A stretch of 64,000 nt of DNA. It comes from an uncultured Thermoprotei archaeon (GTDB taxonomy: Archaea > Thermoproteota > Thermoprotei > Thermofilales > B15-G2). The stretch spans positions 178,391 to 242,390 of the forward strand of contig CBDUKN010000001.1 of NCBI GenBank assembly GCA_965367815.1, written 5' to 3'. Shown in pieces: positions 14,536 through 62,920 of this stretch (positions are counted from its first letter, which is position 1; each line of letters opens with the position of its first letter). The notes under the pieces were generated by a model. The model was not told the origin of the DNA. It worked only from the letters and a program-made list of their open reading frames with translations, and ran no database searches. Both the position numbers and the translations under genes were made by a program.

Positions 14536-15369
14536 GTGTACGTAATTAAAGCAAACGGGGAGAAAGAAGAATTTGATAAAAGTAAAATAATAAGAACTTG
14601 TTTAAGAATGGGGGCTTCAAGAGAATTAGCTGAAGAAATTGCTTCTGAAGTAGAGAAGAGAGCTTATGACGGAATTCCCACTAAAGAAATCTTAAAAACG
14701 ATACTTAAGTTACTAGAAGAGCGCTACCACCCAGCATTTAAACATAGAGAAGACTTGAGATCTGCGCTTAGTCTACTTAGGCCTAAACCAGATTTCGAGC
14801 AATATGTGCGAATAGTTCTAAGAGAACTGGGATACTTTGTTTTACCTAATCAAATTATTAGAGGTAAATGCCTTGAATACGAGCTAGACGGGATAATTGA
14901 AAAAGATGATAAGAGATATATGCTTGAAGTAAAACATCACGTAAATCCTCATACACCTACTGGCCTAGAAGTATGTTTAGCTGTGCACGCTAAGCTACTG
15001 GATATTAATGAAGGATATAGACTAGGCTTAACTACAGTCAAGCTCGATGGAGCAATAATAGTGTGTAACACAAAGTTTTCCTACCATGCACGAAAGTACG
15101 CTGAATGTGCAGGCTTAATGCTGCTAGGCTGGAATCATCCTTCCGAAAACGGTTTAAGCACTATTATAGAAAAAAAGAAGCTCTACCCAATTACGTGTAT
15201 TAAGGGATTTAGTAGGGACGTTTATGCTAAACTTGCAGAAGCTAGAGTACTACTACTTAGGCAAGTAGCTGAAAGTCCTCTAGAAGAATTAACTAAAATT
15301 ACTGGTCTCGATGAAGATACCTTAAGATTGCTTAAAGATAGAGCATTAAAAATAATGTCTATATATTAA
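14536..15369 (+). CDS. ATP-cone + Mrr-like restriction endonuclease domain protein
   Basis: N-terminal VIKANGEKEEFDKSKI ATP cone; FEQYV...ELDG...LEVKHH (PD-(D/E)xK); NTKFS; C-terminal HhH-like region. Confidence 0.8.
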   Translation: MYVIKANGEKEEFDKSKIIRTCLRMGASRELAEEIASEVEKRAYDGIPTKEILKTILKLLEERYHPAFKHREDLRSALSLLRPKPDFEQYVRIVLRELGYFVLPNQIIRGKCLEYELDGIIEKDDKRYMLEVKHHVNPHTPTGLEVCLAVHAKLLDINEGYRLGLTTVKLDGAIIVCNTKFSYHARKYAECAGLMLLGWNHPSENGLSTIIEKKKLYPITCIKGFSRDVYAKLAEARVLLLRQVAESPLEELTKITGLDEDTLRLLKDRALKIMSIY

Positions 15370-15446
15370 AATCTATTTAATTCATTTTTAAGACAATATA
15401 ACTATTTGATTCTCCAGTGGAAATGACTGATGATAGGAGGGGTTCA

Positions 15447-16145
15447 TCAAATTACTAGAGTCGAGAAGCATAAAAGTATGTAGAGTAAAGGAGGTAGAAC
15501 AATATTATCGTCAATAGGTGAGCATAATTCTCCTACAGCAGATATGAATGCAACTATTAGTGAAAAATAGCCGACAATAGTATACGTTGCTGCTGAAATG
15601 ACTATAAATAATGCGAAAGCACCTTCAATACTCTTATTGAGCAGCCTATGTTTGCCAAAGTGTAAACCTGCAAGTGATGCTATAGAATCTCCAATACCAG
15701 AAATAACTATACTTAAAGTAGAGTACTCAATTTTAATGAAAAACTGAAGAAGAAGTACTAGAAGAGCTCCTGAAGCTAAATTGAGTGCACAGTAGCCTGG
15801 AGGCTCGTTTTCTCGAGAGAACTTATTTATAACGCTTTTAGTTATTTTACCGAGTTTATCTACACGTTCTACTGCTAAAGAACCTATTAAAACTAGTATA
15901 GATAAAGTTAGAAGAGATAAACTGTAGCCAAAGCTGATGTAGAGAAAATGAAGTAGAAGACAGCATAAAATGTGTACTATTTTTCTATAGTATTCTCCTC
16001 TAGCGCTTCTATGAAATAGTATAACTGCGAGAATAGCAAGTAGTAGTACGAAGTATTCTACATATCCTGTTAAAGAAGTTTGAAAGTCTACTAGCGATAA
16101 AGCTAAACCTGAAATAGATATAGTTAGGTAAAATTCTCTACGCAT
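15447..16145 (-). CDS. Dolichol/phytol kinase-like CTP-dependent membrane kinase
   Basis: E.YRK.VH, GDS.ASL.G..FG+H, NKS.EG, IDDN..LP motifs. Confidence 0.8.
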   Translation of the reverse strand: MRREFYLTISISGLALSLVDFQTSLTGYVEYFVLLLAILAVILFHRSARGEYYRKIVHILCCLLLHFLYISFGYSLSLLTLSILVLIGSLAVERVDKLGKITKSVINKFSRENEPPGYCALNLASGALLVLLLQFFIKIEYSTLSIVISGIGDSIASLAGLHFGKHRLLNKSIEGAFALFIVISAATYTIVGYFSLIVAFISAVGELCSPIDDNIVLPPLLYILLCFSTLVI

Positions 16146-34809: not shown

Positions 34810-35445
34810 TTATTTACCTGAAAATACTTTACGAATACTTAACAATAGTATAGCTCTTAGTCTCAAAGAACTATAGTCTTCTCCCACAAGTACTCGCTTT
34901 TTCCTCAGCTCAGCTACTCTTCTACCCAGCTCACTTATTTCCATGCCTAGTTTTACTGCAGCATCGCGGAAAGAGTCTGCTTCAGCTATAGCTTTAAGAA
35001 CTCTTACGTCTTCAGAAGAAAGCTCTACTTGAGGAAGGGTCAACAGCTCAAGCAGTACTTCTTTCACAGCGCTCTTAACACTGTAGACTAATTCCTCGGG
35101 AGTCACAAAAACTAGAAACTCTGGTAAAAACAGTACTTCTACTCCCAGAAGCTCAGCTGTTTTTCTCGCAGCTTCATCAGAGAAATCTCTACAAACAATC
35201 AGCGGCTTAGCTTTAAGCAAAACAGCATTAGCATAAACCTGTCTCAAATCAGTTACCGATACTCTACCTGCTTTAACTTCAACAGCATATCTCTCGCCGT
35301 CTTTTTCTGCTAAAATATCTACTTCAGCAATATCTACTCCCTCCACTTTAATCCTATACCTTTTACCAACTATCCTGTACCCTCTCCTGGTCAAAACTTC
35401 TTCAGCTATATTTTCGATAGAAATTCCTTTAATCTTTGGCTTCAT
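34810..35445 (-). CDS. YraN/RecB-like PD-(D/E)xK nuclease with C-terminal HTH
   Basis: G...E......L...GY.I, EVDILAEK.GE.YAVEVKAG, Q...NA; C-terminal SFRDAAVKLG HTH. Confidence 0.8.
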   Translation of the reverse strand: MKPKIKGISIENIAEEVLTRRGYRIVGKRYRIKVEGVDIAEVDILAEKDGERYAVEVKAGRVSVTDLRQVYANAVLLKAKPLIVCRDFSDEAARKTAELLGVEVLFLPEFLVFVTPEELVYSVKSAVKEVLLELLTLPQVELSSEDVRVLKAIAEADSFRDAAVKLGMEISELGRRVAELRKKRVLVGEDYSSLRLRAILLLSIRKVFSGK

Positions 35446-36597: not shown

Positions 36598-38637
36598 GTG
36601 GGATCGGAAAAAGTTGAAATAACGAGAGGGCTTACTTCTCGAGCTATTGTGTGGAGCCTTATACTTTCAGTAATAATGGTATGGCTGTGTACTCAAGTAT
36701 ACTTCACTACAGGAGCTTTCGCTTTCTTTAATCCATGGCCATATAGCCACACAGTAGGAGCTCAGATAGTAGAAACTGTTGGACTATTAACGTTAGTGGT
36801 TCTACTGACCAGTTTAATGGGTAAAGCATTTAGACTAACTTCACAGGAGCTAACTGTAATAATGACAGCTTGCCTAATAGCTGCAATGCCTGTAGGACCA
36901 TATGTTGCTCACTGGACAATGAATTTTGCTCTAGGAGCAAATAAGCCTGGTATAGCGGAAGCGGTTGCTCATTTAGTGCCCAAAATATGGGTTCCTCCAG
37001 CTGAAGCCACTACTAATTACCTAATAGGAGGTCCTGTCCCATGGGGTATCTTAGCTCCCTTCATTATCACCTGGATTATAGCTTGGACTCTATGGGGATA
37101 CTTGAATATAGCGTTCTCTCTGCTGTGGAGGAGAAGCGTAATAGATGTTGAGAAGCTTCCATTTCCTTATGCTGTCGCTGGAATAGAGTTCATTAATATA
37201 GCTACTGGAGAAGATAAACCAAAATTCCTTAATCTCAAAGAGTATGTGGGGAAGTCCTTCTGGATATCATTCATTGTAGGTTTCTTTGCATATCTGCCTC
37301 TAGCCATAAGGATTGTAGTGCCATGGTTCCCCGTACCTGTAATGAAAGGCTCAGCTTACCTAAGAAACTGGTGGATGATAAACTTCTACGATGAACTCAA
37401 AGGTCTAGCTCCATGGGCTCCTTGGGCTATATGGCCTATACCTGAAGTCACAGCACTAGCCTACTTAGTACCAGTAGATATTCTATTCACAGTAGTCGCA
37501 GCTTACATATTTTTCTTTTATATATTTCCACCAATAGAGTTTTCTCTCGGAATAGCTCCTCCTCCGCCACCTGGAGGCTTTTCTGACTGGTACAATGCCT
37601 ACAAATTCTATGCACGTAAAGTAGGCTTAAAGCCTCAAGCTATATTTGAAACAGGAGGAATATGGGCATTTGCTATCTTCAGTATAATCTTCCACTGGAA
37701 ATATATCAAAGAAATAATAAACTATATCAGGAAGCCTCCTGCCGATGAAAAAGAGGCTGAGCCACTTTCATACAAAGCTATGTTCTCAATGTTTGTTCTC
37801 TTCTTCATAATATACTGCGGTTTCATGGTATCCATGGGCGTCCCAGCGGGACTAGCCCCTATATTACTTATGCTGACTTGTCTGATATTCTATGCGGAGC
37901 TATTAATGAGAGCTGAAGCCGGGCCCTTTGGTTATTGGTGGAGTGAACCTACTCAAATATTCTACGCGAACATCGGAGGAACTTTAGGTCTGTGGTCATG
38001 GCCAGCCTCAGATAATCCGGCAGCTTATGCTACTGCCTACTGGGCGGTACAGTTCCACGGGTACAACCTTGGAGCACAGCCAGGAGTTGTGAGCATGGAT
38101 GCATACAAGATAGCTAAGTCCACTAAAACAAGTCCACGCGAGATACTCATAACCCAGTTGATCTTCACTCCAATAGTATTCGCCCTAGCATTTCTCTTTA
38201 CAGCATACAGTAGCTATGCTCTAGGAATAGAAAAGGCATTCAGAGGAAGACCTATAGTTACTTCATGGCCTAAATCTTGGGTCTACGGAGTTCTCAAAGA
38301 GCCGTTAATGAAACACGCTTATTGGGCTGGTCCAGGAGATCTGCCTTTAGCTCTCTCAGCTTTCATAATATTTCCGATAATAATGTTACTGAGAATGAAG
38401 TTCCCGTGGTTCATTATCAATCCAGTAGGCTTAATACTGTTCTGTGGTCACGAAGCCAAGCTCTTTGGGCCATTCTTCATAGCACTGATAATTAAGTACG
38501 CTGTATTAAAGCTAGGAGGAACAAAGCTGTACCGTAAGGGAATACCAATAGTCCTAGGATTCATTTCAGGTTGCGCTATATCAAGAATAGTCGTAGCTCT
38601 CTGTTATCTTGCAGCAGGTATTCCAGCACCTATTTAG
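36598..38637 (+). CDS. OPT-superfamily-like membrane transporter (DUF6785-like)
   Basis: About 16-18 TM helices; LT.QEL, W...IDVEKLPFPYA, R.KFPWF.INPVG, K.AVLKLGG.KLY+ motifs. Confidence 0.75.
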   Translation: MGSEKVEITRGLTSRAIVWSLILSVIMVWLCTQVYFTTGAFAFFNPWPYSHTVGAQIVETVGLLTLVVLLTSLMGKAFRLTSQELTVIMTACLIAAMPVGPYVAHWTMNFALGANKPGIAEAVAHLVPKIWVPPAEATTNYLIGGPVPWGILAPFIITWIIAWTLWGYLNIAFSLLWRRSVIDVEKLPFPYAVAGIEFINIATGEDKPKFLNLKEYVGKSFWISFIVGFFAYLPLAIRIVVPWFPVPVMKGSAYLRNWWMINFYDELKGLAPWAPWAIWPIPEVTALAYLVPVDILFTVVAAYIFFFYIFPPIEFSLGIAPPPPPGGFSDWYNAYKFYARKVGLKPQAIFETGGIWAFAIFSIIFHWKYIKEIINYIRKPPADEKEAEPLSYKAMFSMFVLFFIIYCGFMVSMGVPAGLAPILLMLTCLIFYAELLMRAEAGPFGYWWSEPTQIFYANIGGTLGLWSWPASDNPAAYATAYWAVQFHGYNLGAQPGVVSMDAYKIAKSTKTSPREILITQLIFTPIVFALAFLFTAYSSYALGIEKAFRGRPIVTSWPKSWVYGVLKEPLMKHAYWAGPGDLPLALSAFIIFPIIMLLRMKFPWFIINPVGLILFCGHEAKLFGPFFIALIIKYAVLKLGGTKLYRKGIPIVLGFISGCAISRIVVALCYLAAGIPAPI

Positions 38638-38683
38638 AAAATATATTAAATTTTTTACATATTTTTCCCAAAGGTGATTCAGC

Positions 38684-41600
38684 ATGAGGAAGTTTACTGC
38701 AATAGGATTCCTGTTCTTTATACTCATTATAGCAAACTGTTGTTCAGTTAAAGGATCCGACGAAAATAAAAATATCTATAAAGAGTCCGCCCAAATGGTT
38801 TTTCTCTTAGACTTAAACAAAATACGTACTCATGTAGAGTACCTTTCTTCAGTAAATTCTAGATTTACTGGGTATCCTGGCTTCTATAAGGCTAGAGACT
38901 ATATTGTAAACTATTTCCGGAAGCTAGGTCTCAAAGTAACACTTCAGAATATTTCAGTTTTAATTCCGCTGGAGAAATATGCTTACATAAAAGTAGGGGA
39001 AGAGAAAATCGAGGTACACGCTGTATATCCTAATTTAGTATGCTTACCTAATGCTGAAGGATTAGAGGGAAGACTTGTATACACTGGTAAGTGTTCACTA
39101 AAAGAACTCGAAGGACTAGAGGTAAACGGATCTATTCTTCTAGTAGATTTTGACTGCGGCTGGAATTGGCTTAATGGTTTCCTTTTTGGAGCAAAAGCAG
39201 TTATTTTTCTGGAGACACGCGGAGTAAACAGAGTAGAGGCCGAGAAGAAATACCTGCCTTACCCAGCTAACTTGCCTAGGTACTATGCTGATAAAGAGGC
39301 CGCCGCTAAACTATTGGCGGCGGCAGAGAAGGGTTTTAAGGCTAAAATCTATGTTAGAGTCGAGTGGAAGAAAGTTGAAGTGAGCAATATTATTGCAGTA
39401 CTTGAGGGAGAGAAAAGTGATGAAATTGTAGTCTTTATGAGCTATTATGATGCGTTTTCTGTAGTACCAGCCTTAGCTCCAGGGGCAGAAGACTCTCTCG
39501 GGATATCGCTGTTGCTAGAGATTGCTCGAGTCTTATCTTCTAAGGGAAAGCCTTATAGAACTATCTGGTTTGTAGCTCTAGCTGGACATTACCAGGGAAT
39601 AATTGGGGCAAGAGAGTTTGTAGAAGAATACTTCTTTGGGAAAATGTCTAAGAAAACTGGCGGAGATGGACGCTATGTAAGAGTTATCATGGGACTGGAT
39701 ATAGCATCTGATAGCGACTACTTGGCGCTAGTTGCTGGAAGAAGTGATGGAGAGTCCTTTTATGCTCTCTCGAGACTGGACTTTACTAGCATTTACGGAA
39801 TAATGGAAGACATAGTGTTTTACGGAGGTGCAAAGCTTTCTAAATATTCTTCACCTCTACAGGAAATAAGAGATCAATCCTTCCTGCACTATCTAATGCT
39901 ATACACAGGAAAGAGGTACAAGGTAGCTGATGGTCTTAGGCTAAGTGAAGGGAAATACTTTAAAGAAGCGGCGGCTTCTCCAATAGGACTCATGTTAGAT
40001 AGTGAGGCTCCGGCAATAGCCGGTGCATATGCTTTTTCGCTTTCAACATCGCTTTCTCTAAGACTAAACAGATGGTCTCCTCTGGATAAAATCAGTTCAG
40101 TGAACTTCACTAATATAGCTCCTCAAGCCGAGTTCGCGATTGCTTTTGCATACTTCTTGACTAACTGGAAGGAGCTCAGCAAGAAAATACCTGTTCTTTC
40201 TGCAAGCAAGTTTCTTGGAGGACAGAATAAGGGATTCATAACACTTAAAGGCAGAGTAGTTGAGTATGATTTAAATAAAGGAATATATGTTGCTGTCCCT
40301 AACGCTATTATACATATAGTTGCTAACTCCTACAAGCACGAAATTCTTGTGCAGACAAATGAGAAAGGGCTTTTTGAAGTGCATGGACTTTCTCCTTCGG
40401 CTCTTTATTTGATAGAAGCTTTTGCAGTAGACCCGAATACAGGAAATGTTGTATACGCCCCTGATTACGGGGAATACGGAGGAAAAGTCTTTCCTCTTAG
40501 ACGTACTTCCTTCATAGATCCTGAGGTTGAAATAACTACAGTGGTTTTCAAAGCAGGCTCGATAGTGTTCATTGACGCAATAGACCCTAGGAGTATCATG
40601 GGAAGAGTTTTCACTATAATAGTGAACGACGTTAGGTCGCATACTCCAACAATAAAATATGGGTCATCAGAGTTGCTAAGCCAAATAGTCTATGAATACT
40701 TGTCTAGAAAAGCCATGCCAGCTATGCCGATTTTTTACATAGAGCCTCCAGTAGCTGTAGCCTTTGTGCCAGAAGATGTTCCAGTAGAAGTTATGTTTAA
40801 ATTAGGTGCTGTTTTCACAGGAGTATACAATAATTTAGGAAGAGGAATAAAAGTAAGTACTGGAGAGCAGGTCATAGTAAATACACCTCTAGTGATGGCT
40901 AGAGACTTAGTAAAACTTGATGAAGATAGACTAAGCCTACTACACTCTTATGGGGTCTATAGCGGCGGAGAAATAGCAGAAAAGTATCACGCGAGAGCTC
41001 AAGACTGTTTAAGGAAGGCTCTAGACTACTTAAATAGAAAGAAGTATGCGAAAACCTATGTTTACTCAATTAGATCATGGGCTATAGAACTCAAAGCCTA
41101 TAGCGAGACTAGGAAACTGATATCGGATACGGTCAATACTGCGATCTTTTTCTCATTCATGTTAGTTCCCTTTGCTTTCTTCTTAGAGAGACTGGTTTTT
41201 AGTAGAAGAGGTCTAAAACAGTTCTTAGGGACTCTAGCATTCTACATAGTGTTTACAGCACTCTTTGTGGCTACTCATCCAGGCATAGTGGTAGCTTCAA
41301 GCGGTTTCATGATTATACTTTCTACATCTGCTTTGATCTTAGTAATACCAGTACTCGGCATTATGCTGAGTGAAGTGCAGGAACGCTTTAGGGAGCTGAG
41401 GGAAAGACTTCTAGGAAGGCATGAAGCTGGAATAAGCATAGCCTCAGCAGTTACTCTCTCATTTTCTTACAGCACTCTAAGTATGAGGAGGAGAAGAGCG
41501 AGAACTATTCTTACATTAGTCTCTCTGATAACAGTAGTCTTTGGCATGATAGCTCTATCATCTGCCTATGCTTTCAGCGTAGTTCTCCCTAAGCCTCAGC

Positions 41601-43138
41601 AGGCCGAAATAAAGCCGTATTACGGAATACTGATAAGAAATCCTGAGAGAGCTGTCTTGCCCGAAGTAACGCTTAAGTTCTTTAAAGCTTGGTTTGAGGA
41701 AGAAGGAGTAGTTTCAGCTAAGATATGGTGGTATCCTAGATATCTGTTTAAGCCAGAGATGAGTGCAAAGTTTGGAACAAATGCTTCTCTTCGTGCTCTC
41801 TGGGCTCTAAGTAAGGAAGGTATAGAAATTTATAACTTTTCAAATGCAATTGTGCCGACAGAAGCTCTTGGCATAGTGTCTGAAGGATCTATGGCGTGTA
41901 TAGTCAGCTCTGATATAATTGAGAGAGGTATTAAGGTAGGAGACGAAATTCTGCTTCCAGGAGGAATAAAGCTGGTAGTAATAGGTCAGACTATCAAGGG
42001 AATGAAGCTTCCTCTTGATCTAGATTTAGACGAAATATCTCCAGTAGACCCTATTGCTTTAGTAGAGGCAGGTGAAGAGATACAGACTTATCCTAGGCTA
42101 AAGAACTACTTCGCAATAGTTCCGCTAAGAGTGCTCAAGCTATTAGGAGACTACGGTATCTACTCTATATCGGTTAAGTTCACAAAGAAAGTTGACTTAA
42201 AGAGCTTAGCTGAAGAGCTAGTGGACATCATGGGAGTAGATGTTTATGTAGGATCAGAAGAAGGAACACTAATCTACCGTCAGGCGCTTGCGTTTACTTT
42301 CCACGGATGGCAATATCTCATGATACCGCTTGTTATCGCTATGTTCACAATACTGAACACAATGCTAGGAAGCATATATGAGAGAACAGGTGAAATCAAA
42401 ATACTAAGCGCCTTGGGATTATCTCCCACACAAGTGTTCTTTGTGTTTCTAGCTGACGCGATAGTCATGGGCGTAGTCGGAAGCTTTATAGGTTATCTTA
42501 TGGCGACAGTTTATGCCAAGGCTTATGCCATAATAGCTGCGGAAAAACTTGCATTTAACTATACGTCGTGGTTCGTGATGATAGTGGTAGTGCTTTCTAT
42601 AGTAGCTAGTCTTCTCTCAACACTCTATCCGGCTTTTAAGGCGTCGAAGCTCGTAACTCCGTCTCTAGCTAGAAAGTGGAAAGTAGCAGGACCTAGGGGC
42701 GACACCTGGGAGATACCATTACCGTTCGTGGCGGAGGAGGCAGAGGTAGAAGGAGTTCTTGCTTTCATGAAAGAATATTTCTCAGCGCATAAGGGAGAGA
42801 GGCTAGGCAAATTTATGGTCACAAGTGATGTTGAATACCACGAAGAAGAAATCGCTGGACAGTACACTAAATCAATAGTCTTCACGATGTCTCTAGCCCC
42901 CTATGAGCAAGGTATTTCTCAAAGAGTAGAGCTAAATGCTGTCTGGAACCAGGCCATGCGAAAATACACCTTTACAGCGAACTTAAAGCTCCTCACAGGC
43001 TCGAGGAAGCTGTGGACAAGTCTAGCTTATGGAGTAATGGACGATGTGAGAAAGCAGCTTCTCCTCTGGAAGATACTGAAGCCCGAAGAGAGGAGGAAGT
43101 ACATTAGTCGTGCTCGCGAGATCTTAGGGGTGAGATGA
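38684..43138 (+). CDS. Giant fusion: signal peptide, PA/M28-like peptidase fold, carboxypeptidase-regulatory-like beta sandwich, TM block, MacB/FtsX-type permease, C-terminal domain
   Basis: SR.TGYPG, YYD.FS.VP.LAPGA, AGHYQG..GAREF; GRVVEY...PNA.I...TNEKGLF.V.GL; RRRRARTILTL; YERTGEI.ILSALGLSP; YPA.KAS+L.TPS. Confidence 0.8.
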   Translation: MRKFTAIGFLFFILIIANCCSVKGSDENKNIYKESAQMVFLLDLNKIRTHVEYLSSVNSRFTGYPGFYKARDYIVNYFRKLGLKVTLQNISVLIPLEKYAYIKVGEEKIEVHAVYPNLVCLPNAEGLEGRLVYTGKCSLKELEGLEVNGSILLVDFDCGWNWLNGFLFGAKAVIFLETRGVNRVEAEKKYLPYPANLPRYYADKEAAAKLLAAAEKGFKAKIYVRVEWKKVEVSNIIAVLEGEKSDEIVVFMSYYDAFSVVPALAPGAEDSLGISLLLEIARVLSSKGKPYRTIWFVALAGHYQGIIGAREFVEEYFFGKMSKKTGGDGRYVRVIMGLDIASDSDYLALVAGRSDGESFYALSRLDFTSIYGIMEDIVFYGGAKLSKYSSPLQEIRDQSFLHYLMLYTGKRYKVADGLRLSEGKYFKEAAASPIGLMLDSEAPAIAGAYAFSLSTSLSLRLNRWSPLDKISSVNFTNIAPQAEFAIAFAYFLTNWKELSKKIPVLSASKFLGGQNKGFITLKGRVVEYDLNKGIYVAVPNAIIHIVANSYKHEILVQTNEKGLFEVHGLSPSALYLIEAFAVDPNTGNVVYAPDYGEYGGKVFPLRRTSFIDPEVEITTVVFKAGSIVFIDAIDPRSIMGRVFTIIVNDVRSHTPTIKYGSSELLSQIVYEYLSRKAMPAMPIFYIEPPVAVAFVPEDVPVEVMFKLGAVFTGVYNNLGRGIKVSTGEQVIVNTPLVMARDLVKLDEDRLSLLHSYGVYSGGEIAEKYHARAQDCLRKALDYLNRKKYAKTYVYSIRSWAIELKAYSETRKLISDTVNTAIFFSFMLVPFAFFLERLVFSRRGLKQFLGTLAFYIVFTALFVATHPGIVVASSGFMIILSTSALILVIPVLGIMLSEVQERFRELRERLLGRHEAGISIASAVTLSFSYSTLSMRRRRARTILTLVSLITVVFGMIALSSAYAFSVVLPKPQQAEIKPYYGILIRNPERAVLPEVTLKFFKAWFEEEGVVSAKIWWYPRYLFKPEMSAKFGTNASLRALWALSKEGIEIYNFSNAIVPTEALGIVSEGSMACIVSSDIIERGIKVGDEILLPGGIKLVVIGQTIKGMKLPLDLDLDEISPVDPIALVEAGEEIQTYPRLKNYFAIVPLRVLKLLGDYGIYSISVKFTKKVDLKSLAEELVDIMGVDVYVGSEEGTLIYRQALAFTFHGWQYLMIPLVIAMFTILNTMLGSIYERTGEIKILSALGLSPTQVFFVFLADAIVMGVVGSFIGYLMATVYAKAYAIIAAEKLAFNYTSWFVMIVVVLSIVASLLSTLYPAFKASKLVTPSLARKWKVAGPRGDTWEIPLPFVAEEAEVEGVLAFMKEYFSAHKGERLGKFMVTSDVEYHEEEIAGQYTKSIVFTMSLAPYEQGISQRVELNAVWNQAMRKYTFTANLKLLTGSRKLWTSLAYGVMDDVRKQLLLWKILKPEERRKYISRAREILGVR

Positions 43139-45042
43139 TGTCTCTCTTAGGAGATGTATCTAAATGGAAAGAAGGTTTCACTTATCGAGTAGTCTTTGCC
43201 GCAATATATGCGGCAATAGTTCTTCAGCCAATAATACTCTTTAGCCAGCTGTATTCAGGAGTAGCGCTGGTCGGAGCAGCAACTTACTTAACGCTAGTGC
43301 TTTTCGATCAGATAGGAAGACTTTCAGGAAAACCTCTCAGCAAACAAGAATTATTTACTCTGCAGATAGCAGCTGAAACAGCTGCAGGAGACATAATATT
43401 CCTACAGCTACTGTGGTTTGCTTTCCTTAGAACAGGTAGTGTATCTAAAGCATTCGGTATAGCCGACAAACTACCTTTATGGATAGCGCCTCCGGAAACA
43501 TCGCCAGTATATCTCTACAGAACAATACTCCATAGTGACTGGCTCATGCCAATAGCCCTCTTAGTATTATCCTACGTCTTTTACAAAATATGTAATGTAT
43601 CACTCGGACTTATAGCAGCACACCTATACGTCGAAGTAGAGCGCCTGCCATTCCCGTTAGCTCAAGTATCGGCAGAAGTGATAGTAACGCTAGCCGAAAG
43701 AGAGTCTGAAAGAGTAAGAGTTTTCAGTATAGCTACTTTCATAGGAGCCATATACTCTCTCGTGTTATATGGAGTACCCCTGCTAAGCGAAGTTTTCGCC
43801 GGAACAGCTATTCGAATACTTCCATTTCCGTGGTACGATATGAATAATTTCATAGAGACATGGCTCCCTGGCGCAAGCTTCGGAATAGCCACAGATATAC
43901 TAGTACTGGGAACAGGTTTTGTCATACCCTTCAACGTAGCTGTAGCACAGTTCTTAGGAGCATTTGTAATATACTTTATAGGAAACCACCTACTAGTGGT
44001 AAACAATCTTTTCCCACACTGGCTCCCAGGAATGAACATTACACTCACCTGGAGCAATTCAATACTAGACTTCTGGGCAAGCTTCATAATAGGACTAGGC
44101 ATAGCAGCTGGAATAGCACCTTTCATAAAACACCCAGAGTACGTTACATCAACTATAAGGAGCTTAGCCAAGCTCTCTAAAGCCTCTAAGGAAGCAGGAT
44201 ACTTATCAATTAAAGTCCTTGGAACACTATTCCTCTTCGGTAGTCTTAGCTTAGTAGCAATAGCACTATTACTCGTGCCCAGCTTTATGCCCTATGCCTG
44301 GGTACTTCTCCTCCTCTCGCCTGTATGGGCCTTCATATCAACTTTAATAGCAGCAAGATCTCTTGGTCTCACAGGATACAATCTAGCAATACCTTATGTG
44401 AGAGAAATAGCATTAGCTTTAACACCTTACAGGGGAGTAGACATATGGTTTGCTCCAATATATACACCGTCTAATATAGGCTTTGTCTGGCCTACTGGAG
44501 GCTCAAGCTGGGCCGCAACTCTTAAAATATGCTGGATAACAGAGACTAAGTTATCAAGTATATACAAGGCGTGGATACTGGCAACAGCATGTGCCTGGTT
44601 AGCAGGACTTTTTTACGTAGACATTTTCTGGAGACTAGCTCCAGTGCCCTCTACATTCTACCCGTGGACTGCTATTTACTGGCCAGTTCAAGCAATATAT
44701 ACAGGGCTATGGATTACTAAACAAATATTCGTATTTAACCCAGCGTTGCTATTAATAGGACTATTTGGAGGACTAGCTCTTTCTGCATTAGAGTATTTGA
44801 AAATACCTTTCTCCTTGATAGGATTTGCTTTTGGAGTAGCATCACCTATACCGACAAGTGTGACAGTTCTTATAGGTGCTCTACTAGGAAAGTACTTTTT
44901 CTCAAGAGTCTTTGGAAAAGAGTGGTGGAAAAAATATAAAACAGTAATTGTGGCCGGATTCACTTTCGGAGAGGGAATAATTGTTGGAGTGACAATATTA
45001 ATAACACTTATAGCGAAGTCCGTGTGGACTATGCCTTATTAA
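43135..45042 (+). CDS. OPT-superfamily-like membrane transporter
   Basis: LSKQEL, VEVERLPFPLA, about 16 TM helices, C-terminal AGF..GEG; 4-nt overlap with the upstream giant gene. Confidence 0.78.
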   Translation: MMSLLGDVSKWKEGFTYRVVFAAIYAAIVLQPIILFSQLYSGVALVGAATYLTLVLFDQIGRLSGKPLSKQELFTLQIAAETAAGDIIFLQLLWFAFLRTGSVSKAFGIADKLPLWIAPPETSPVYLYRTILHSDWLMPIALLVLSYVFYKICNVSLGLIAAHLYVEVERLPFPLAQVSAEVIVTLAERESERVRVFSIATFIGAIYSLVLYGVPLLSEVFAGTAIRILPFPWYDMNNFIETWLPGASFGIATDILVLGTGFVIPFNVAVAQFLGAFVIYFIGNHLLVVNNLFPHWLPGMNITLTWSNSILDFWASFIIGLGIAAGIAPFIKHPEYVTSTIRSLAKLSKASKEAGYLSIKVLGTLFLFGSLSLVAIALLLVPSFMPYAWVLLLLSPVWAFISTLIAARSLGLTGYNLAIPYVREIALALTPYRGVDIWFAPIYTPSNIGFVWPTGGSSWAATLKICWITETKLSSIYKAWILATACAWLAGLFYVDIFWRLAPVPSTFYPWTAIYWPVQAIYTGLWITKQIFVFNPALLLIGLFGGLALSALEYLKIPFSLIGFAFGVASPIPTSVTVLIGALLGKYFFSRVFGKEWWKKYKTVIVAGFTFGEGIIVGVTILITLIAKSVWTMPY

Positions 45043-45997: not shown

Positions 45998-46726
45998 TTA
46001 CTTCAAGGCTATTACTGCTATTATAGGGTAGTGATCGCTTAGAAAAATATTTTTCTCTGGAAATACTATGTTTTTGTAAACAGAATACTCGAGAACAGTC
46101 TTCAATACTCTTCTATGAACCCACACATAGTCTACGCGTAGTCCTCCAAGAGTAGTCGGCTCTTCTCCTTTAGCTACATCAATGTATCCTCTCGGCAACA
46201 TGTATTCGTAAACTGGTCCATGAGGAGGCTCATTGAAGTCGCCAACAAGTATGTCTGGGTCTTCTCCTTCGCTGAAAACTTGTTTGAGATTATGAAGCCT
46301 ATACACGAGAGATTTTTTGCCTAAGAGGCGGCCTGAAGGCAAATGTAGATTGCATAGAGTTATAGTTTTACCTGAAGCTAGCCTAATTGACAGCTTCTGC
46401 CACATTCTCGCTACATTTTTCTGCGAATATTGGTACTTCAGCGCCTCGATGTTCTTTTTCAGGAAAATAGCTCCACCGTAATCTGGGAATAGAACTCCTT
46501 TTGCATAAAAACACTTCATGCGGAGTTTTTCTGCTATTTCTTTGACTGCTCTCTTAGACTGTACTTCTTGTAGACATAGTACATCGGGACTTAGCTGAGA
46601 ATATATTCCGATAAGTCTTTCTAATATTTCTCCTAAAGGGTCACCTGGCTTTTCTTCAATGAAAGAAGACCCTTGAAACCAGTAAGCATTATGCGTAACT
46701 ATCTTCAGAGTTAGATTATTAGTCAT
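45998..46726 (-). CDS. Endonuclease/exonuclease/phosphatase (EEP) family protein
   Basis: VTHN, DVLCLQEV, NLHL, GDFN, RVDYVW, SDHYP. Confidence 0.88.
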   Translation of the reverse strand: MTNNLTLKIVTHNAYWFQGSSFIEEKPGDPLGEILERLIGIYSQLSPDVLCLQEVQSKRAVKEIAEKLRMKCFYAKGVLFPDYGGAIFLKKNIEALKYQYSQKNVARMWQKLSIRLASGKTITLCNLHLPSGRLLGKKSLVYRLHNLKQVFSEGEDPDILVGDFNEPPHGPVYEYMLPRGYIDVAKGEEPTTLGGLRVDYVWVHRRVLKTVLEYSVYKNIVFPEKNIFLSDHYPIIAVIALK

Positions 46727-47969
46727 AGTTCAGTATCCTGATTCTATACATGTAGAGAGGACTTCTTATGATTAAGTCGCCTTTATCTCCTCTTTCACCG
46801 TACCTCGCCATAAATAGCACTATGTCCCCTGTTTTTCTGTCTTGATAGCAGCGGAAGTTAGATAACTGGACCATAGGAGAGTCTTCGGGTCTCTTAGTGT
46901 CAATAATTGCTACAGTTTTCTTCATGACCACTAATTTCTCCTCATCTATTTCAGCTATGCATAGAGGATATCTAGGTCTATTTCCGACAGGATTTTTGTC
47001 AACAATATTGGCTATCCAGTATACTTTGCCCGTTTTAATGCTTCGAAAGAGAAGTGAGCAGGAAGAAGGAGAGTATAAAGAAGAGCTGTCATCATATTTG
47101 AGAGGCTTCGGCGGGGTCCAAGTGTAGCCGCCGTCTTCTGAGATACTGTACCACTTGTAGCCTGGCTTCTCGGGAAAAGCACCATTATCTCCACGCATTA
47201 CTGCGAAAAGCCGGCCGTCTTCCAGCTCGACGACTGTTGGTTCGCAAAGCCTACATGATACGTGAGGATCTATGGTTATTTTCTCGCTTATTTCCCACAC
47301 TATTTCTCCACGCTTCCATTCTCCTATAAGGAATGCTGATTCGTAGAATGGGCTGAAGTAGTGTGGAAACGGGAACCAGATATTTCCTTTCTCGTCTACG
47401 GCTTTGAGCTGACACGGTACAAGAATTTTTCCTTGCCTAGTTTTAATGGGTCTTGAACAAGAAACAGCTAAAGAGCCTCGCGGGACTCCGGGAAAAACAT
47501 ATTTGTCATCGGCAATACCGCAGGCCTTTACTTTTCTTTCTGGACTCCACTCAAAAGTACTTTTGTCTAGTATGCGCCAGTATACTTGCCATAGAGCTTT
47601 GGTGGGAACATCTTCGGGATAAAATCCTCTATTATAGAGCATGAGTAATACATCTTTTTCTTTGTCGAGAAAGTAGGTTAAACCCGAGTACCTGTAAACA
47701 CCCTTTTCTCTCTTTTTAGCTGAGAAAAGGTAGCGAGTTTTAGTCCAGGTTTTGCCGTTATCGTAGCTGAAGACTTCACGCCACTTATCGTAGCGGTCGC
47801 TCCCAACTATGACGCCATACGATAGAACGAGAATATCGCGGTCTCTGTGCACATAACATACGTCGCCTACAACAATACCTCCTTCAGGTTCCTCGGGTAT
47901 AAGAATTTTCCTAGAAACTTTTACTCTCACGCAGTAGTTTATTAAAGTCATCGATATAAAACACTTCAC
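46719..47969 (-). CDS. Sialidase-like BNR/Asp-box beta-propeller (true start probably slightly downstream)
   Basis: Asp boxes SYDNGKTW and SEDGGYTW, CEPTVVEL.DGRL..VMRG, PRYPL.IAEID, QLSNF. Confidence 0.8.
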   Translation of the reverse strand: MKCFISMTLINYCVRVKVSRKILIPEEPEGGIVVGDVCYVHRDRDILVLSYGVIVGSDRYDKWREVFSYDNGKTWTKTRYLFSAKKREKGVYRYSGLTYFLDKEKDVLLMLYNRGFYPEDVPTKALWQVYWRILDKSTFEWSPERKVKACGIADDKYVFPGVPRGSLAVSCSRPIKTRQGKILVPCQLKAVDEKGNIWFPFPHYFSPFYESAFLIGEWKRGEIVWEISEKITIDPHVSCRLCEPTVVELEDGRLFAVMRGDNGAFPEKPGYKWYSISEDGGYTWTPPKPLKYDDSSSLYSPSSCSLLFRSIKTGKVYWIANIVDKNPVGNRPRYPLCIAEIDEEKLVVMKKTVAIIDTKRPEDSPMVQLSNFRCYQDRKTGDIVLFMARYGERGDKGDLIIRSPLYMYRIRILNYD

Positions 47970-48044: not shown

Positions 48045-48911
48045 TTGCATGTGCGAGAAGCAGTTTTATGCTTAACTGTTTTTGTAGTTCTCGTAAGCTT
48101 AGCTTATGCTGAACCCAATGTTGTTAAAGTACTTGAAGTACCTTACATTAATCAGAAATACGATGTACCGGAATGGTTTGATGGAAGGTATTCATGTGGA
48201 CCTACGTGTGTCGCAATGGTTCTCGCATACTATGGTGTTTTACCGCCCTGGCCTCTTAACTGCAGTAAGCCTTTTCCTCATGAAAGCCTCTACGGCAAGT
48301 ACATTGTTTGTAAATTTAAGGTAGGAGACTTTGTTTTTGATGAACGTCAGCCAGATGCCTCGAGAATGCACTACGGCTACGGTATACACGGCTACGTCTA
48401 TGAACCAGGGGTAGGAGCAGTGTGGAGCAAGATAGTAGAATTGTTCAAACTATTCGGTTTTGAAGCCTATGTTGATACCACGCCTATGTGGGAAGAGCTT
48501 GTAGCCGAAATAAACGCCGGCCGCCCCGTTATATTGGGCACTGAGATTACGAGCAGCGGGCATCTTGTAGTAGCAGTAGGGTATACAAGTGATAAAGGCG
48601 TAGTAGTAAACGATCCAGCTGGAGACAAGAGTTTAGGCTACTTTAACTACAATGGAGCTAAAGTAATCTACGACTGGCCGGGCGTAAACAACGGTAGAGT
48701 CAACTTAAAGAAAATAAAGGTCTTTATTACAGTAAGGCCTACTAAGCATTTAAAGAAGGCAGAGCCAATTGAGCCTTGTAAGCCAGAAGGACTGGAAAAC
48801 TACATGCCAGTGTACATTTTTCTAGCAGTTTCGCTAGTAATTTCAATTATAGTAGGCTTAATTGTAATTAAAAAAGAGTACTCTAAAATATATTCACAAA
48901 ATAAGCAATAG
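48045..48911 (+). CDS. Secreted, C-terminally anchored C39-like cysteine peptidase
   Basis: Signal peptide (..SLAYA|EP), VPYINQ, SCGPTCVAMVLAYY, GHLVVAVGY, VNDP, C-terminal TM followed by basic residues. Confidence 0.82.
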   Translation: MHVREAVLCLTVFVVLVSLAYAEPNVVKVLEVPYINQKYDVPEWFDGRYSCGPTCVAMVLAYYGVLPPWPLNCSKPFPHESLYGKYIVCKFKVGDFVFDERQPDASRMHYGYGIHGYVYEPGVGAVWSKIVELFKLFGFEAYVDTTPMWEELVAEINAGRPVILGTEITSSGHLVVAVGYTSDKGVVVNDPAGDKSLGYFNYNGAKVIYDWPGVNNGRVNLKKIKVFITVRPTKHLKKAEPIEPCKPEGLENYMPVYIFLAVSLVISIIVGLIVIKKEYSKIYSQNKQ

Positions 48912-59848: not shown

Positions 59849-60841
59849 ATGAAAAATATTTTTTATATTTTTTCTGATATTTCTGAGAAATTAGGTTCAC
59901 CTAAATCTAAAGCTTTTAAAGCTATTAAAAAATATACTCGTAAGCTTCTCCCTTATCTTTTTATGGCTCCCTTCTTCGGATATATTATACTTACTTGGAT
60001 TGCACCAGTACTAATTACTATTATTTTATCTTTCATGAAAGCCCAGTGGACTATTACTAGAATGCAGTTTATAGGATTAAAGAACTTTGAACGAATATTC
60101 ACTCGAGATATTTTCGCGTTTCAAGCTCTCAAAGTCACAGTGCTCTACGTCTCTACAGTGCTAATAATAAATGCTTTCTTTAGTTTAGTGCTGGCGATCT
60201 TCGTAACATACTTTGTTAAAAATGAGACTATTGCAGCAGGAATAAGACTTATGTGGCTTATTCCGAGAATTACACCTGCTGTTATCTACGCTCTTCTCTG
60301 GAGATGGTTCATAGACCCCCGCGTAGGAATGTTAAATAAAATACTAGCCTTCTTTGGATTGCCGACACCCAGCGACTGGCTGCTCACTTCGCCTTACTCA
60401 CAGATACTCATGATTGTTGTAAACGGCTACGTTGGAGCATCATTCGGCCTTATTATCTACTCTGCTGCAATAACATCTATTCCAAGAGAACTCTTCTATG
60501 CTGCTTCAATTGACGGAGCGTCAGACTGGCAGATAATACGTCACATAATTATTCCTCTCCTCAAGTGGCCAATATTCTTCGTTACAGCTTGGCAGGCTCT
60601 TAGCCTAATATCTTCATACGAGCACATTCTAGCGCTGTGGGGAGGAGCCGGTGTAGCCAGGGCAGCTGAAGTAGAAGTATGGGCGCTATACGCTTATGTG
60701 AGGGCATTCTATTCAGCTGAGTACGGATATGGTGCAGCTCTCTCTGTATTCCTAGTAGTCATAGGTCTTGTTCTCATAGCCATATTCTTCAAGATATTTG
60801 GCTTCAAGAGAATGATGCAGCCTTCGAGAGTAGAGGTGTGA
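59849..60841 (+). CDS. Sugar ABC transporter permease (MalF-like)
   Basis: FIGLKNF, EAA-loop variant ELFYAASIDGAS.WQ. Confidence 0.9.
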   Translation: MKNIFYIFSDISEKLGSPKSKAFKAIKKYTRKLLPYLFMAPFFGYIILTWIAPVLITIILSFMKAQWTITRMQFIGLKNFERIFTRDIFAFQALKVTVLYVSTVLIINAFFSLVLAIFVTYFVKNETIAAGIRLMWLIPRITPAVIYALLWRWFIDPRVGMLNKILAFFGLPTPSDWLLTSPYSQILMIVVNGYVGASFGLIIYSAAITSIPRELFYAASIDGASDWQIIRHIIIPLLKWPIFFVTAWQALSLISSYEHILALWGGAGVARAAEVEVWALYAYVRAFYSAEYGYGAALSVFLVVIGLVLIAIFFKIFGFKRMMQPSRVEV

Positions 60842-60845
60842 GACT

Positions 60846-61742
60846 ATGAGTAGTCGAAATGATTATGTTTCTAAAATAAGGAAATATAAAATCAAGAGAA
60901 CTTTGACGCTAATTTTTGTATACGCAGTTCTCTTAGTGCCCTTAATACCTATACTACTAATGGTGGGATGGCTCGTTGCGCAGAGTTTCAGTGAAGGGCC
61001 TACTGACAGCATAATACCCAACGGCTTTACCTTAAATAACTTCAGGTTTCTCTGGGCTCCGATACGATTTGGTCTTTCAGAGTACCCGAACATATGGCCT
61101 TTAGTAATGAACTCTCTCTTCTTAGCTCTAGGTACTACGGCTTTCGAAATACCTGTAGCCGCTTTAGCAGGATACGCTCTCTCGAGAATGGATTTCAAGG
61201 GCAGAATGTTTACGATGAGACTTATAGTTGCTCTACACGCTTTTCCCGGAGTGATACTCTTAATAGCCTTATTCTATATTCTAAATAGGCTAGGGCTCTA
61301 CGGCAAAGGGTTCTTAACACTAGTAGGTGTCGCCTTAATTAAAGCAGGACTAGGCATACCAATGGATACTTGGATACTGAAAGGTTTCTTTGACGGCATA
61401 CCCTGGGAACTAGAGTGGGCAGCTATGGTCGATGGAGCTACCCGCTTTAAAGCATGGCGCAAAATACTGCTACCTATAGTTGCTCCAGGAATCTCTGCTG
61501 TAGCAATATTCTCCTTTATGAGCGGCTGGGGCGAGTTCCTAATAGCCTACACTTACATCAAGAGAAAGGAGTTCTACCCACTCTCAGTATTTCTGTACAG
61601 TGTCATAGGAGAATTCGTTTACGTTGACTGGGGACTACTAGCGGCGATAGCGCTCTTCTACATGATCCCAGTGCTGATCTTCTACGCGCTATCGCAAAAG
61701 ACTCTCTTGAAGCTACAGCTAGTGGGAGCTGTAAAAGGCTAA
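60846..61742 (+). CDS. Sugar ABC transporter permease (MalG-like)
   Basis: AGYALSR..FKG, FFD.IP.ELE.AA.VDGA. Confidence 0.9.
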   Translation: MSSRNDYVSKIRKYKIKRTLTLIFVYAVLLVPLIPILLMVGWLVAQSFSEGPTDSIIPNGFTLNNFRFLWAPIRFGLSEYPNIWPLVMNSLFLALGTTAFEIPVAALAGYALSRMDFKGRMFTMRLIVALHAFPGVILLIALFYILNRLGLYGKGFLTLVGVALIKAGLGIPMDTWILKGFFDGIPWELEWAAMVDGATRFKAWRKILLPIVAPGISAVAIFSFMSGWGEFLIAYTYIKRKEFYPLSVFLYSVIGEFVYVDWGLLAAIALFYMIPVLIFYALSQKTLLKLQLVGAVKG

Positions 61743-61809
61743 TTTAAACCACTCATATAAAATTTAAGTTGTTTAAGACAATACATAAATGAAGTCTGGT
61801 GGTGATAAT

Positions 61810-62895
61810 ATGGTTCGGGTTAAACTGGTCAATCTCTGTAAGTATTTTGGAAAAGTTAAGGCAGTAGATAATCTCAACCTAGAGATAAAGGATGGAGAGT
61901 TTGTGGCACTATTAGGGCCAAGCGGCTGCGGAAAAACGACAACACTGCTCATGATAGCGGGAATCTACAAGCCTACCAAAGGATACATCTACTTTGATGA
62001 CCAGATAGTAAATGACCTACCACCCAAGGATAGGAACATTGGAATGGTTTTCCAGAACTACGCGCTTTATCCTCACATGACCGTGTACGAGAACATAGCT
62101 TTCCCACTTAAATTAAAAAAACTACCTAAAAAAGAAATAGACAAGAGAGTAAGAGAAGTAGCCCGCTTCCTTAGAATAGAGGAGCTTCTCGATAGAAAGC
62201 CAGGCCAGCTCAGCGGAGGCCAGCAACAGAGAGTAGCTTTAGCAAGAGCACTCGCTAAAAGACCGCAGCTCTTCCTCATGGACGAGCCTCTAAGCAACTT
62301 AGACGCCAAGCTCCGTGTAGTAATGAGAGCTGAGCTAAAGAGACTACAAAAAGAACTCAAAATAACGACTATCTATGTTACTCACGACCAAGTAGAAGCA
62401 ATGACTATGGCCGACCGAATAGCAGTAATGAATAAAGGCAGACTACAGCAGTATGGTGAACCCCACGAGCTATACAATAAGCCAGCAAATGTTTTCGTAG
62501 CAGGCTTCATAGGCACACCCCCAATGAACTTTCTTGAAGGATCGCTAGTAGACAAAGGAGACTTCATGATAATAGACTTCGGTCCATTTTCCCTAAAACT
62601 GCCCCAAGACATAGCCGACTTACTTAGAAAAATGAATGTCTCAGGAGAAGTCATATTCGGCATTAGACCAGAAGACGTAATTATAGGAGATCAAGGAGAA
62701 CTTGAAGGAGAAGTATACGTCGTAGAGCCATTAGGCAAAGACATAATAGTCCACGTCAATTTAGGCGACAATAAAATAATAAGAGCTGTAACGACAGTAG
62801 AGAAAGCTCCTCCAATGGGTAGCAGAGTAAAAGTATCATTTAACATGAAGAAAGTACACATTTTCGATAAGAAAACAGAGAAAGCCTATATTTAA
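61810..62895 (+). CDS. Sugar ABC transporter ATPase (MalK-like; start likely ATG 61810)
   Basis: GPSGCGKTT, LSGGQQQR, MDEPLSNLDA, VTHDQ, C-terminal TOBE domain; GGTGGTGA SD before 61810. Confidence 0.93.
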   Translation: MVRVKLVNLCKYFGKVKAVDNLNLEIKDGEFVALLGPSGCGKTTTLLMIAGIYKPTKGYIYFDDQIVNDLPPKDRNIGMVFQNYALYPHMTVYENIAFPLKLKKLPKKEIDKRVREVARFLRIEELLDRKPGQLSGGQQQRVALARALAKRPQLFLMDEPLSNLDAKLRVVMRAELKRLQKELKITTIYVTHDQVEAMTMADRIAVMNKGRLQQYGEPHELYNKPANVFVAGFIGTPPMNFLEGSLVDKGDFMIIDFGPFSLKLPQDIADLLRKMNVSGEVIFGIRPEDVIIGDQGELEGEVYVVEPLGKDIIVHVNLGDNKIIRAVTTVEKAPPMGSRVKVSFNMKKVHIFDKKTEKAYI

Positions 62896-62920
62896 CCTAG
62901 TAAAAAGTAGGATAGTTTAG

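Follow-up and report, generated by a model that had tools for sequence, protein, structure and literature searches.

The 64,000-nucleotide stretch analyzed here (the window), part of contig CBDUKN010000001.1 from an uncultured Thermoprotei archaeon of the order Thermofilales, carries at positions 36598-45042 three co-oriented genes in which a giant FtsX-type membrane protein (P2) stands between two polytopic membrane proteins (P1 and P3). We propose that this triad is an exchangeable capture-and-import module of a transport system that has several components, occurs in some Thermoproteota and serves all its modules with one shared ATP-binding cassette (ABC) core; we judge the chances that this reading is right to be evenly balanced. 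The triad is one of about seven copies in its genome, it recurs in rearranged form in other lineages, and its distribution is matched by that of a pair of MacB-type ATPases and a small FtsX protein encoded elsewhere. A preliminary description of the locus had called it ATPase-less, which is true locally and not at the level of the genome. The features of the triad, with their open reading frames (ORFs), are as follows:

36598-38637 (+): P1, ORF of 679 aa with a GTG start; polytopic membrane protein, member of DUF6785 and DUF6784, divergent OPT-superfamily carrier
38638-38683 (+): P1-P2 spacer, 46 nt, AT-rich, with GGTGA 8 nt before the P2 ATG as read from the sequence
38684-43138 (+): P2, ORF of 1484 aa with an N-terminal signal/anchor, an ectodomain, three extra transmembrane (TM) helices, a MacB-type FtsX module and a cytoplasmic tail
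38810-39721 (+): PA and M28-like ectodomain region of P2, residues ~43-346, with a degenerate active site
41486-42658 (+): MacB-type FtsX module of P2, residues ~935-1325, comprising TM1, an extracytoplasmic MacB-like domain, TM2-4 and the YERxxE coupling-helix motif
42683-43135 (+): P2-specific cytoplasmic C-terminal alpha/beta domain, residues ~1334-1484
43135-45042 (+): P3, ORF of 635 aa, OPT-fold carrier; its start overlaps the P2 stop

This layout, with its 46-nt gap and 4-nt overlap (the P2 stop and P3 start share ATGA), agrees with the preliminary description.

Folds of the three proteins

P1 matched the Pfam families DUF6785 (PF20581; E = 5e-20, 71.9 bits against a cut-off of 25) and DUF6784 (PF20580; E = 5.9e-12, 46.1 bits against a cut-off of 26.4). 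Pfam found nothing significant in P3, and neither protein matched Pfam OPT (PF03169) at E ≤ 1. A P3 paralogue in the source genome (G000:C3:121891-123291, G000 being that genome and C3 one of its contigs), which P3 matches with a phmmer E of 2.6e-81, does pass Pfam OPT, scoring 60.7 bits where 25.8 are required. Comparison of family profiles shows P1 and P3 to be homologous (hhalign probability 99.6, E = 1.7e-24, 581 columns), and the two translations carry the motifs EKLPFPYA and ERLPFPLA, respectively, in line with the earlier observation that the flanking proteins are distant paralogues sharing E[KR]LPFP.A. An AlphaFold2 model of P3 built from 61 homologues (predicted local distance difference test [pLDDT] 91.3, pTM 0.89) resembled one solved fold only, that of the barley Yellow Stripe 1 transporter (YS1; 7wsr_A): VIA-align gave a Z of 25.8 over 545 aligned residues at a root-mean-square deviation of 3.6, with the runner-up at Z 5.3, and Foldseek gave an E of 1e-10 and a TM-score of 0.69-0.72. 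A P3-family profile run against PDB sequences returned only chance-level PsaK matches. We conclude that P1 and P3 are distant paralogues with an OPT/Yellow-Stripe fold and that the term OPT-like, which the preliminary description had applied to both, is justified by the P3 fold together with transitive sequence evidence.

According to parts of one study (PMC9691689), YS1 (7wsr/7wst) is a homodimeric, elevator-type proton symporter and an importer. Because YS1 is such a dimer, a P1/P3 heterodimer is plausible, and by this analogy the two proteins probably form one. P3 shares the YS1 fold over its 545 aligned residues at a sequence identity of 13-16%, and, unlike OPT/YSL proteins, P1 and P3 are two diverged paralogues tied to an ABC system, both of which fall below Pfam OPT detection.

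P2 combines the M28-like region and the FtsX permease that had been read from its 1484 residues: Pfam placed Peptidase_M28 (PF04389) at residues 235-346 (E = 2.6e-11, 44.1 bits against a cut-off of 21.3) and FtsX at residues 1216-1322 (E = 1.2e-13), and residues 43-315 aligned to the PA-M28 aminopeptidase 2ek8 at E = 3.5e-11. P2 thus matches the M28 profile but lacks the catalytic-residue pattern of the family, and the word peptidase, as used for it earlier, is not supported. We take the roles of the M28 residues (HxD, D, EE, D/E and H, as zinc ligands and general-base Glu) to be those of the Aeromonas enzyme. In alignments to 2ek8, to 2anp (a mutant chain of the Aeromonas aminopeptidase) and to 5gne, the HHD/HLD of the enzymes is YYD in P2 and their Glu-Glu pair is HY. 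Not one of 76 P2 family members keeps the Glu-Glu pair; its first position is His in 67 of the 76, and its second is Trp in 44 and Tyr in 20. The position of the first zinc-binding His is occupied by His in 49 of these sequences, Tyr in 17 (as in the P2 of the window, which therefore also lacks this ligand) and Arg in 7, and D256 is kept in all 76. Because the catalytic Glu-Glu pair is replaced by His and an aromatic residue, the PA/M28-like ectodomain is, judged by its sequence, probably non-catalytic; given the kept D256 and the His in place of the general-base Glu, it may hold a residual or altered metal site. The ectodomain also matches the non-catalytic Nicalin (E = 2.4e-4) and NAALADL (E = 1.4e-4), and nicastrin and transferrin receptor are further non-catalytic M28-like ectodomains. 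The P2 family differs from these non-catalytic proteins in keeping D256 and in having His for the general-base Glu (67/76). An identity of P2 as an S-layer protein was considered and set aside; the part consulted of a paper on the colossal S-layers of Thermoproteota (10.64898/2026.08.21.746120) mentions neither FtsX nor M28.

An AlphaFold2 model of P2 residues 800-1484 (pLDDT 86.4) contains the three extra helices, then a module of the MacB/LolC/FtsX/HrtB type and then a cytoplasmic alpha/beta domain. Foldseek matched the FtsX module to MacB (5lil, E = 3.5e-10), LolCDE, YtrEF, HrtBA, BceAB and FtsEX, and VIA-align gave Z scores of 14.2 for HrtB, 13.6 for FtsX and 13.3 for MacB. The extracytoplasmic domain, inserted between TM1 and TM2 of the module, matched the periplasmic domains of YknZ (Z 12.1) and MacB. 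The coupling-helix motif YERxxE is conserved, E1233 being nearly invariant and R1234 invariant in an 11-sequence alignment. In the tail domain the motifs PSLERKWK...WEIPLPF and RKQLLLWR are conserved; its fold matches were only middling (KA1 and START/AHSA1-like, Z 7-8.4), an ESM Atlas look-up of this C-terminal domain returned nothing usable, and the shorter relatives described below as FX2 are unmatched over the last ~100 positions of the P2 profile. At the level of the whole protein, P2 missed the NCBIfam cut-offs for LolC (35.3 bits; cut-off 473), ADOP (34; 622), MacB (25.9; 966) and FtsX_Gpos (24.8; 225), and also that for LolE.

Recurrence of the triad and co-occurring ATPases

The source genome (2.45 Mb, 99.4% complete) holds eight P2-like, six P3-like and seven P1-like ORFs, most of which form triads, as well as a fragment of P1. 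Seven of its sequences exceed the DUF6785/DUF6784 cut-off, namely six P1 paralogues and the fragment, which lies at the start of contig C19, and an eighth (C14) falls below it; these two families had no match in any of 14 control genomes. With ~8.4 kb for each of seven modules, ~60 kb of this genome goes to them. In relatives, P2 matches reach 16-17 per genome, and P2 proteins share 29-55% identity within the order.

A pattern-plus-tblastn scan of species-representative genomes confirmed 162 stretches, of which the best 80 loci were kept and scored with hidden Markov models (HMMs) made from the paralogues of the source genome; ORFs were called mechanically and labeled by their best HMM, so single calls may be off. 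By their record labels, the loci come from metagenome-assembled genomes (MAGs) of Thermoprotei/Thermofilaceae, Bathyarchaeia, Brockarchaeota, Caldarchaeales, Nitrososphaerota/Thaumarchaeota and one Desulfurococcaceae. The three genes are co-conserved, a point that the preliminary description had left to be checked: P1, P2 and P3 occur together in 57 of the 80 loci and in 28 of the 31 loci with at least 4.5 kb on both flanks. Since the arrangement recurs both as paralogues within the genome and in these 57 loci, it is not due to chance. Gene order varies across the loci (P2-P3-P1 in 14, P1-P2-P3 in 13, a divergent P1 in 7, and others), and the persistence of linkage through this reshuffling, together with the P2-P3 overlap, speaks for the triad being a functional unit.

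No ABC ATPase was found among the ten flanking ORFs scanned by Pfam (spermidine synthase, Mrr-HTH, HAD, metallophosphoesterase, PHP, EEP, BNR-like, C39-like and two without a family), and the nearest ABC_tran match on the contig lies ~17 kb downstream, at ~61.8-62.9 kb of the window, in an ordinary permease-permease-ATPase operon. The earlier statement that the cluster has no ABC ATPase in it or beside it therefore stands, but it does not extend to the whole genome, where a MacB-type ATPase pair and a mini-FtsX co-occur with the module. The source genome has five MacB/LolD-type ATPases and 18 FtsX matches, which comprise three canonical permeases beside an ATPase, one mini-FtsX beside an ATPase and 14 large ORFs without an adjacent ATPase. 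Three genes concern us here:

G000:C9:63737-64375: mini-FtsX, 212 aa
G000:C9:63012-63734: C9 MacB-type ATPase, adjoining the mini-FtsX
G000:C4:10332-11063: C4 orphan MacB-type ATPase, without a permease neighbor

The C4 gene, an orphan ATPase gene of the kind that the preliminary description proposed to look for elsewhere in the genome, has RLI, PolB and a THUMP gene around it; its product is 74% identical to the C9 ATPase. The ATPase motifs are all invariant in 30 aligned sequences. Within the order, C4-type orthologues, whose identity of 79-100% is far above that among P2 proteins, are present in 22 of 25 P2-bearing genomes and in none of the 15 that lack P2; in one more genome the P2 match is only partial, and a C4-type ATPase is absent. 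We then counted occurrences in 251 evenly sampled genomes of the phylum, each at least 85% complete, taking the ATPase at E ≤ 1e-90 and the large FtsX module (profile A3) at E ≤ 1e-40. The ATPase was present in 51 genomes and the module in 50: both in 49, the ATPase only in 2, the module only in 1 and neither in 199. The mini-FtsX, in full-length frames of ~200 aa that often adjoin an ATPase, was present in 50 genomes, 49 of them within the ATPase set. The P3 family was present in 44, all of which belong to the ATPase set, and in none of the 200 genomes outside it. Presence and absence split concordantly inside families f5, f13, f25 and f34, indicating that the pattern is not simply that of one ancient clade.

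In G085 and G221, complete genomes of 1.58 Mb that each carry P2 only once, an operon encoding the mini-FtsX, a C9-type ATPase and a C4-type ATPase directly adjoins a P2-P1-P3-GH57 operon. Only 5 of the 80 loci have an ABC ORF within 3 kb of P2, and of the 17 ABC ORFs of those loci only one, in L017, is of the co-occurring type.

A complex of the C4 ATPase with P2 residues 915-1484 was also predicted, with an ipSAE score of 0.36 (0.36, 0.35 and 0.37 in three runs), whereas the best of three controls scored 0.00; partner pLDDT did not fall below 76, and the runs had at least 61% of contacts in common. In the benchmark, 58 of 80 solved complexes and 2 of 110 mismatched pairs came up to this mark, but passing scores at or below 0.60 were seen in only 7 of the 80 and in both of the passing mismatches; these counts hold only roughly here, since our own alignments were used. 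The prediction weakly supports binding of the P2 FtsX module to the C4 ATPase.

The source genome also encodes a second family of ATPase-less large FtsX proteins (FX2), of 1012-1312 aa and without the P2 tail domain:

G000:C3:116339-119941, C3:130739-133777, C7:57961-61071, C5:48748-51909 and C20:33626-37564: FX2 family members (loci L101, L103, L104 and L108)

Their ectodomains differ from that of P2 (Phospholipase_B/AAT-like, CarboxypepD_reg). FX2 genes often lie in the same clusters as triads, and some genomes pair FX2 with the ATPase pair but lack P1 and P3. Among P2 proteins, a solitary subfamily, mostly of 1510-1590 aa (L049, L055, L090, L046, L048, L060, L065, L077 and L086), has no P1 or P3 within 10 kb; it occurs in MAGs labeled Caldarchaeales and Nitrososphaerota and is followed by conserved 339-aa and 296-aa proteins without a Pfam family. 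In one genome with a solitary P2, P1 and P3 are found elsewhere, adjoining an FX2 gene, a mini-FtsX and an ATPase (L098). The P2 paralogue at G000:C5:40313-44269 (L103:4313-8266; 1318 aa), whose P2 match ends at about residue 1220 and which has no tblastn FtsX match, precedes P3, P1 and an FX2 gene, in that order, and this cluster may be a split variant of the module. In L106, a P2-like gene (C12:18651-22883) with an internal TAG and an FX2-like gene (C12:22907-25357) with an internal TAA are possibly decaying copies.

Gene neighborhood and candidate cargo

Recurrent neighbors in the 80 loci are GFO/IDH/MocA proteins (16), URO-D-like proteins (15), MR_MLE enolase-superfamily dehydratases (8), aldo-keto reductases (AKRs; 7), CBM_4_9 proteins (5) and B12-radical SAM proteins (5). 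A random 142 of the 210 ORFs flanking or inside modules were scanned with Pfam, and the most frequent families were GFO_IDH_MocA in nine; AKR and URO-D in four each; PfkB, ABC_tran, QueT and xylose-isomerase-like TIM in three each; and Sulfatase, GH129, GHL10, SIS, MFS and M20 in two each. On contig C24 of the source genome, genes for a TrmB sugar regulator, a GH130 phosphorylase and a GH76-like protein lie at the flanks of the module, and a GH57 gene lies inside the operon of G085. Gene context favors glycan-derived oligomers as the cargo, with peptides perhaps for some modules, and it points to sugars more than to the peptide or glycopeptide cargo put forward in the preliminary description. 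From the same context we infer that transport would be inward and that the substrate class would differ between modules. The URO-D-like (uroporphyrinogen decarboxylase/MtaA-like) genes beside modules in 15 of the 80 loci, for example at L035:5697-6785, fit poorly with a simple sugar-catabolism picture.

Just downstream of the triad in the window lie a BNR/sialidase-like protein (46719-47969, -) and a Peptidase_C39-like protein (48045-48911, +), which could be extracellular enzymes acting on the substrate of this module. A pair of 242-aa and 416-aa ORFs at 45998-47969 (-) was considered as an ATPase with an FtsX partner and ruled out, as they encode EEP-family and BNR-like proteins. The operon at ~59900-62900 is an ordinary ABC importer operon with two permeases and a 368-aa MalK-like ATPase; the latter, with no other ABC ATPase in this region of the contig, does not belong with the MacB type and shares 39% identity with the orphan ATPase. 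Upstream of the triad, 34810-35445 (-) encodes a 211-aa fusion of an Mrr/UPF0102-type nuclease domain and a LysR-type HTH. The region at ~10000-16000 is low in GC (0.31-0.37, against ~0.40 elsewhere) with a strong positive AT skew. An Rfam scan of the window gave zero matches, and a sigma-70 promoter scan gave 19 sites against a chance expectation of 19.0, and is in any case inapplicable to an archaeon.

Proposed mechanism, alternatives and related systems

In the system that we propose, each module would consist of a giant surface-exposed P2 with a P1/P3 pair of OPT-fold carriers, and the mini-FtsX, the C9 ATPase and the C4 orphan ATPase would form an energizing core common to the modules. 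P2 would pair with the mini-FtsX to give an asymmetric FtsX dimer seated on two ATPases. ATP hydrolysis would move the ectodomain by way of the FtsX stalk, as in MacB, LolCDE and FtsEX; the ectodomain would capture or release an extracellular oligomer; and P1/P3 would provide the translocation path that carries this oligomer across the membrane. The folds, the linkage and paralogy of the genes, their phyletic co-occurrence and the compact supercluster of G085 and G221 are observed, and we infer from them the physical contacts, including those of P1 and P3 with P2, as well as the direction and substrate of transport. A more specific form of the proposal, a primary/secondary transport hybrid in which an asymmetric MacB-type ABC pair (P2 and the shared mini-FtsX on the two shared ATPases) loads or gates a heterodimeric OPT-fold elevator by mechanotransmission driven by ATP, with one core serving many modules, is tentative, and we lean against it.

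Several points weigh against the proposal of an import module with a shared ABC core. P2 has neither P1 nor P3 nearby in 11 of the 80 loci, and in 3 of the 31 that are fully flanked. The 142 neighbor ORFs contain 150 Pfam families, with sugar enzymes as the largest group and not as a majority, and the flanks of the triad in the window (HAD, PHP, EEP, BNR-like and C39-like peptidase) name no substrate. Three genomes of the phylum sample are discordant (G118, G260 and G269), G002 has a C9-type ATPase and no detected P2, and a C4-type ATPase is missing from the P2-bearing G010, G019 and G027 as assembled (83-93% complete); kinship among the genomes also means that the counts overstate the number of independent events. 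The passing P2-ATPase prediction may reflect memory of the solved MacB and LolCDE complexes, and any MacB-type ATPase might dock on P2 equally well. Fused longer P3 relatives were absent from the 8000 candidates scored, a weak negative. To our knowledge, no characterized MacB-type system is an importer, and the known OPT substrates are peptides, glutathione or metal chelates, not glycans.

The same components could instead form an outward-acting surface machine, in which an ABC-driven P2 extracts, processes or remodels an envelope component (S-layer glycoprotein, lipid-linked glycan or lipoprotein) in the manner of LolCDE and FtsEX, P1/P3 export or recycle an associated molecule, and the copies serve different envelope substrates. 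The solved structures that resemble the P2 FtsX module all belong to proteins that act in export, in extraction or in regulating an external hydrolase, which is consistent with such a machine, as are the enzyme-like ectodomains of FX2 proteins (e.g., Phospholipase_B/AAT-like) and the position of core genes among the housekeeping genes RLI, PolB and the GGGP synthase homologue PcrB. However, the modules adjoin sugar-catabolic enzymes, a TrmB sugar regulator and glycoside hydrolases, the number of copies is high and differs between genomes (up to 16-17 matches in one), much as in nutrient-uptake repertoires, and YS1, the one solved OPT-fold protein, is an importer as described in parts of PMC9691689. 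We consider the outward-acting machine, taken as a whole, unlikely. A peptide cargo carried by the same architecture and energizing core, with the ectodomain binding peptide termini and the OPT-like pair importing oligopeptides, seems to us distinctly improbable. The Glu-Glu pair is replaced family-wide, the copy in the window also lacks the first zinc-binding His, and the recurrent neighbors are sugar dehydrogenases, dehydratases, kinases and glycoside hydrolases rather than peptidases, although the ectodomain does match PA and M28 aminopeptidases, a P3 paralogue passes Pfam OPT, Peptidase_M20 appears in 2 of the 142 neighbors scanned, and characterized OPT members carry oligopeptides.

The model of the preliminary description dispensed with an ATPase altogether and had proton-coupled OPT-like subunits energize the FtsX module or act alone with it. 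This would accord with the lack of an ABC ATPase in or beside the cluster of the window and with the presence of an ABC ORF within 3 kb of P2 in only 5 of 80 loci. Yet the occurrence of the large FtsX proteins and of P3 is matched almost perfectly by that of the ATPase pair and the mini-FtsX, the P2 coupling-helix motif is conserved, and the ATPases keep all catalytic motifs. Because this dedicated set co-occurs with the triad and adjoins it in G085 and G221, the OPT-like subunits need not energize FtsX, and we disfavor the model as very unlikely. Finally, two secondary carriers and an unrelated ABC permease might be mere neighbors with independent functions. The contact of P1/P3 with P2 is putative, the 11 loci with P2 alone would suit this view, and so would the 7 of 51 genomes in which the ATPase/FX2 set occurs without P3; but linkage holds across classes of the phylum despite changed order and orientation, P2 and P3 overlap translationally, and P3 occurs without the ATPase set in 0 of 200 genomes, so that coincidental proximity strikes us as scarcely credible.

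An import module with a shared ABC core would resemble several known systems in part. With the type VII systems MacB, LolCDE, FtsEX and HrtBA it has in common the four-helix FtsX module with an extracytoplasmic domain between TM1 and TM2, the coupling-helix motif and MacB/LolD-type ATPases with intact motifs. It differs from them in that the ATPases are encoded in trans, apart from the permease, and are apparently common to many permeases, and in the further features of P2, namely its ectodomain of ~800 aa, its three extra TM helices, its cytoplasmic tail and its linkage to two OPT-fold carriers. BceAB-type permeases, which are among the fold matches of P2, carry two FtsX domains in one polypeptide, only one of them with a large extracellular domain; a P2/mini-FtsX pair of the kind proposed here would be asymmetric in the same way, but with the two FtsX domains in separate genes and the bare one presumably common to the modules. 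In group II energy-coupling factor (ECF) transporters, a shared EcfA-EcfA'-EcfT module serves many scattered S components. The layout here is alike, with two differing ATPases and a small membrane protein encoded once and many specificity modules elsewhere; there is no homology to EcfT or S components, the folds here being FtsX and OPT, and sharing of the core is suggested by gene counts and co-occurrence. ADOP proteins (TIGR03434), which we take to be the "orphan" duplicated FtsX permeases of Acidobacteria, are likewise a large paralogous FtsX expansion without adjacent ATPase genes, but they have two FtsX domains, P2 is not a member (34 bits against a cut-off of 622), and we know of no OPT partners for them. 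The SusC/D polysaccharide-utilization loci (PULs) of Bacteroidota offer a functional analogy only, in that many paralogous capture-import sets have genes for glycan breakdown and sugar regulation as neighbors; there is no relation in proteins, membrane or energy source (TonB versus ABC).

Full-text searches of main articles in the open literature returned no description of an FtsX-OPT-M28 system or of DUF6785/DUF6784, in keeping with the preliminary description, which knew of no functional characterization. Each part is of a known kind (the OPT superfamily, type VII ABC permeases and M28-like domains), and their combination is undescribed in the literature searched.

From this analysis DUF6785 and DUF6784 gain a fold and a context, and a caution follows for annotation, as the dedicated ATPase of an "orphan" FtsX permease can be encoded at a distant place in the same genome. 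Organic matter in sediments and hot springs is degraded by abundant archaea of the Bathyarchaeia, Thermofilales, Brockarchaeota and related lineages, whose uptake of polymers is poorly known. If the proposal is true, it defines a major nutrient-acquisition system of these archaea, extends the MacB-type principle of mechanotransmission to import and provides a case of ECF-like sharing of an energizing module in an unrelated class of transporter. The hybrid form, if true, would be a Thermoproteota counterpart of PULs without described precedent, and if the coupling of OPT and ABC components is physical, the system would be categorically new.

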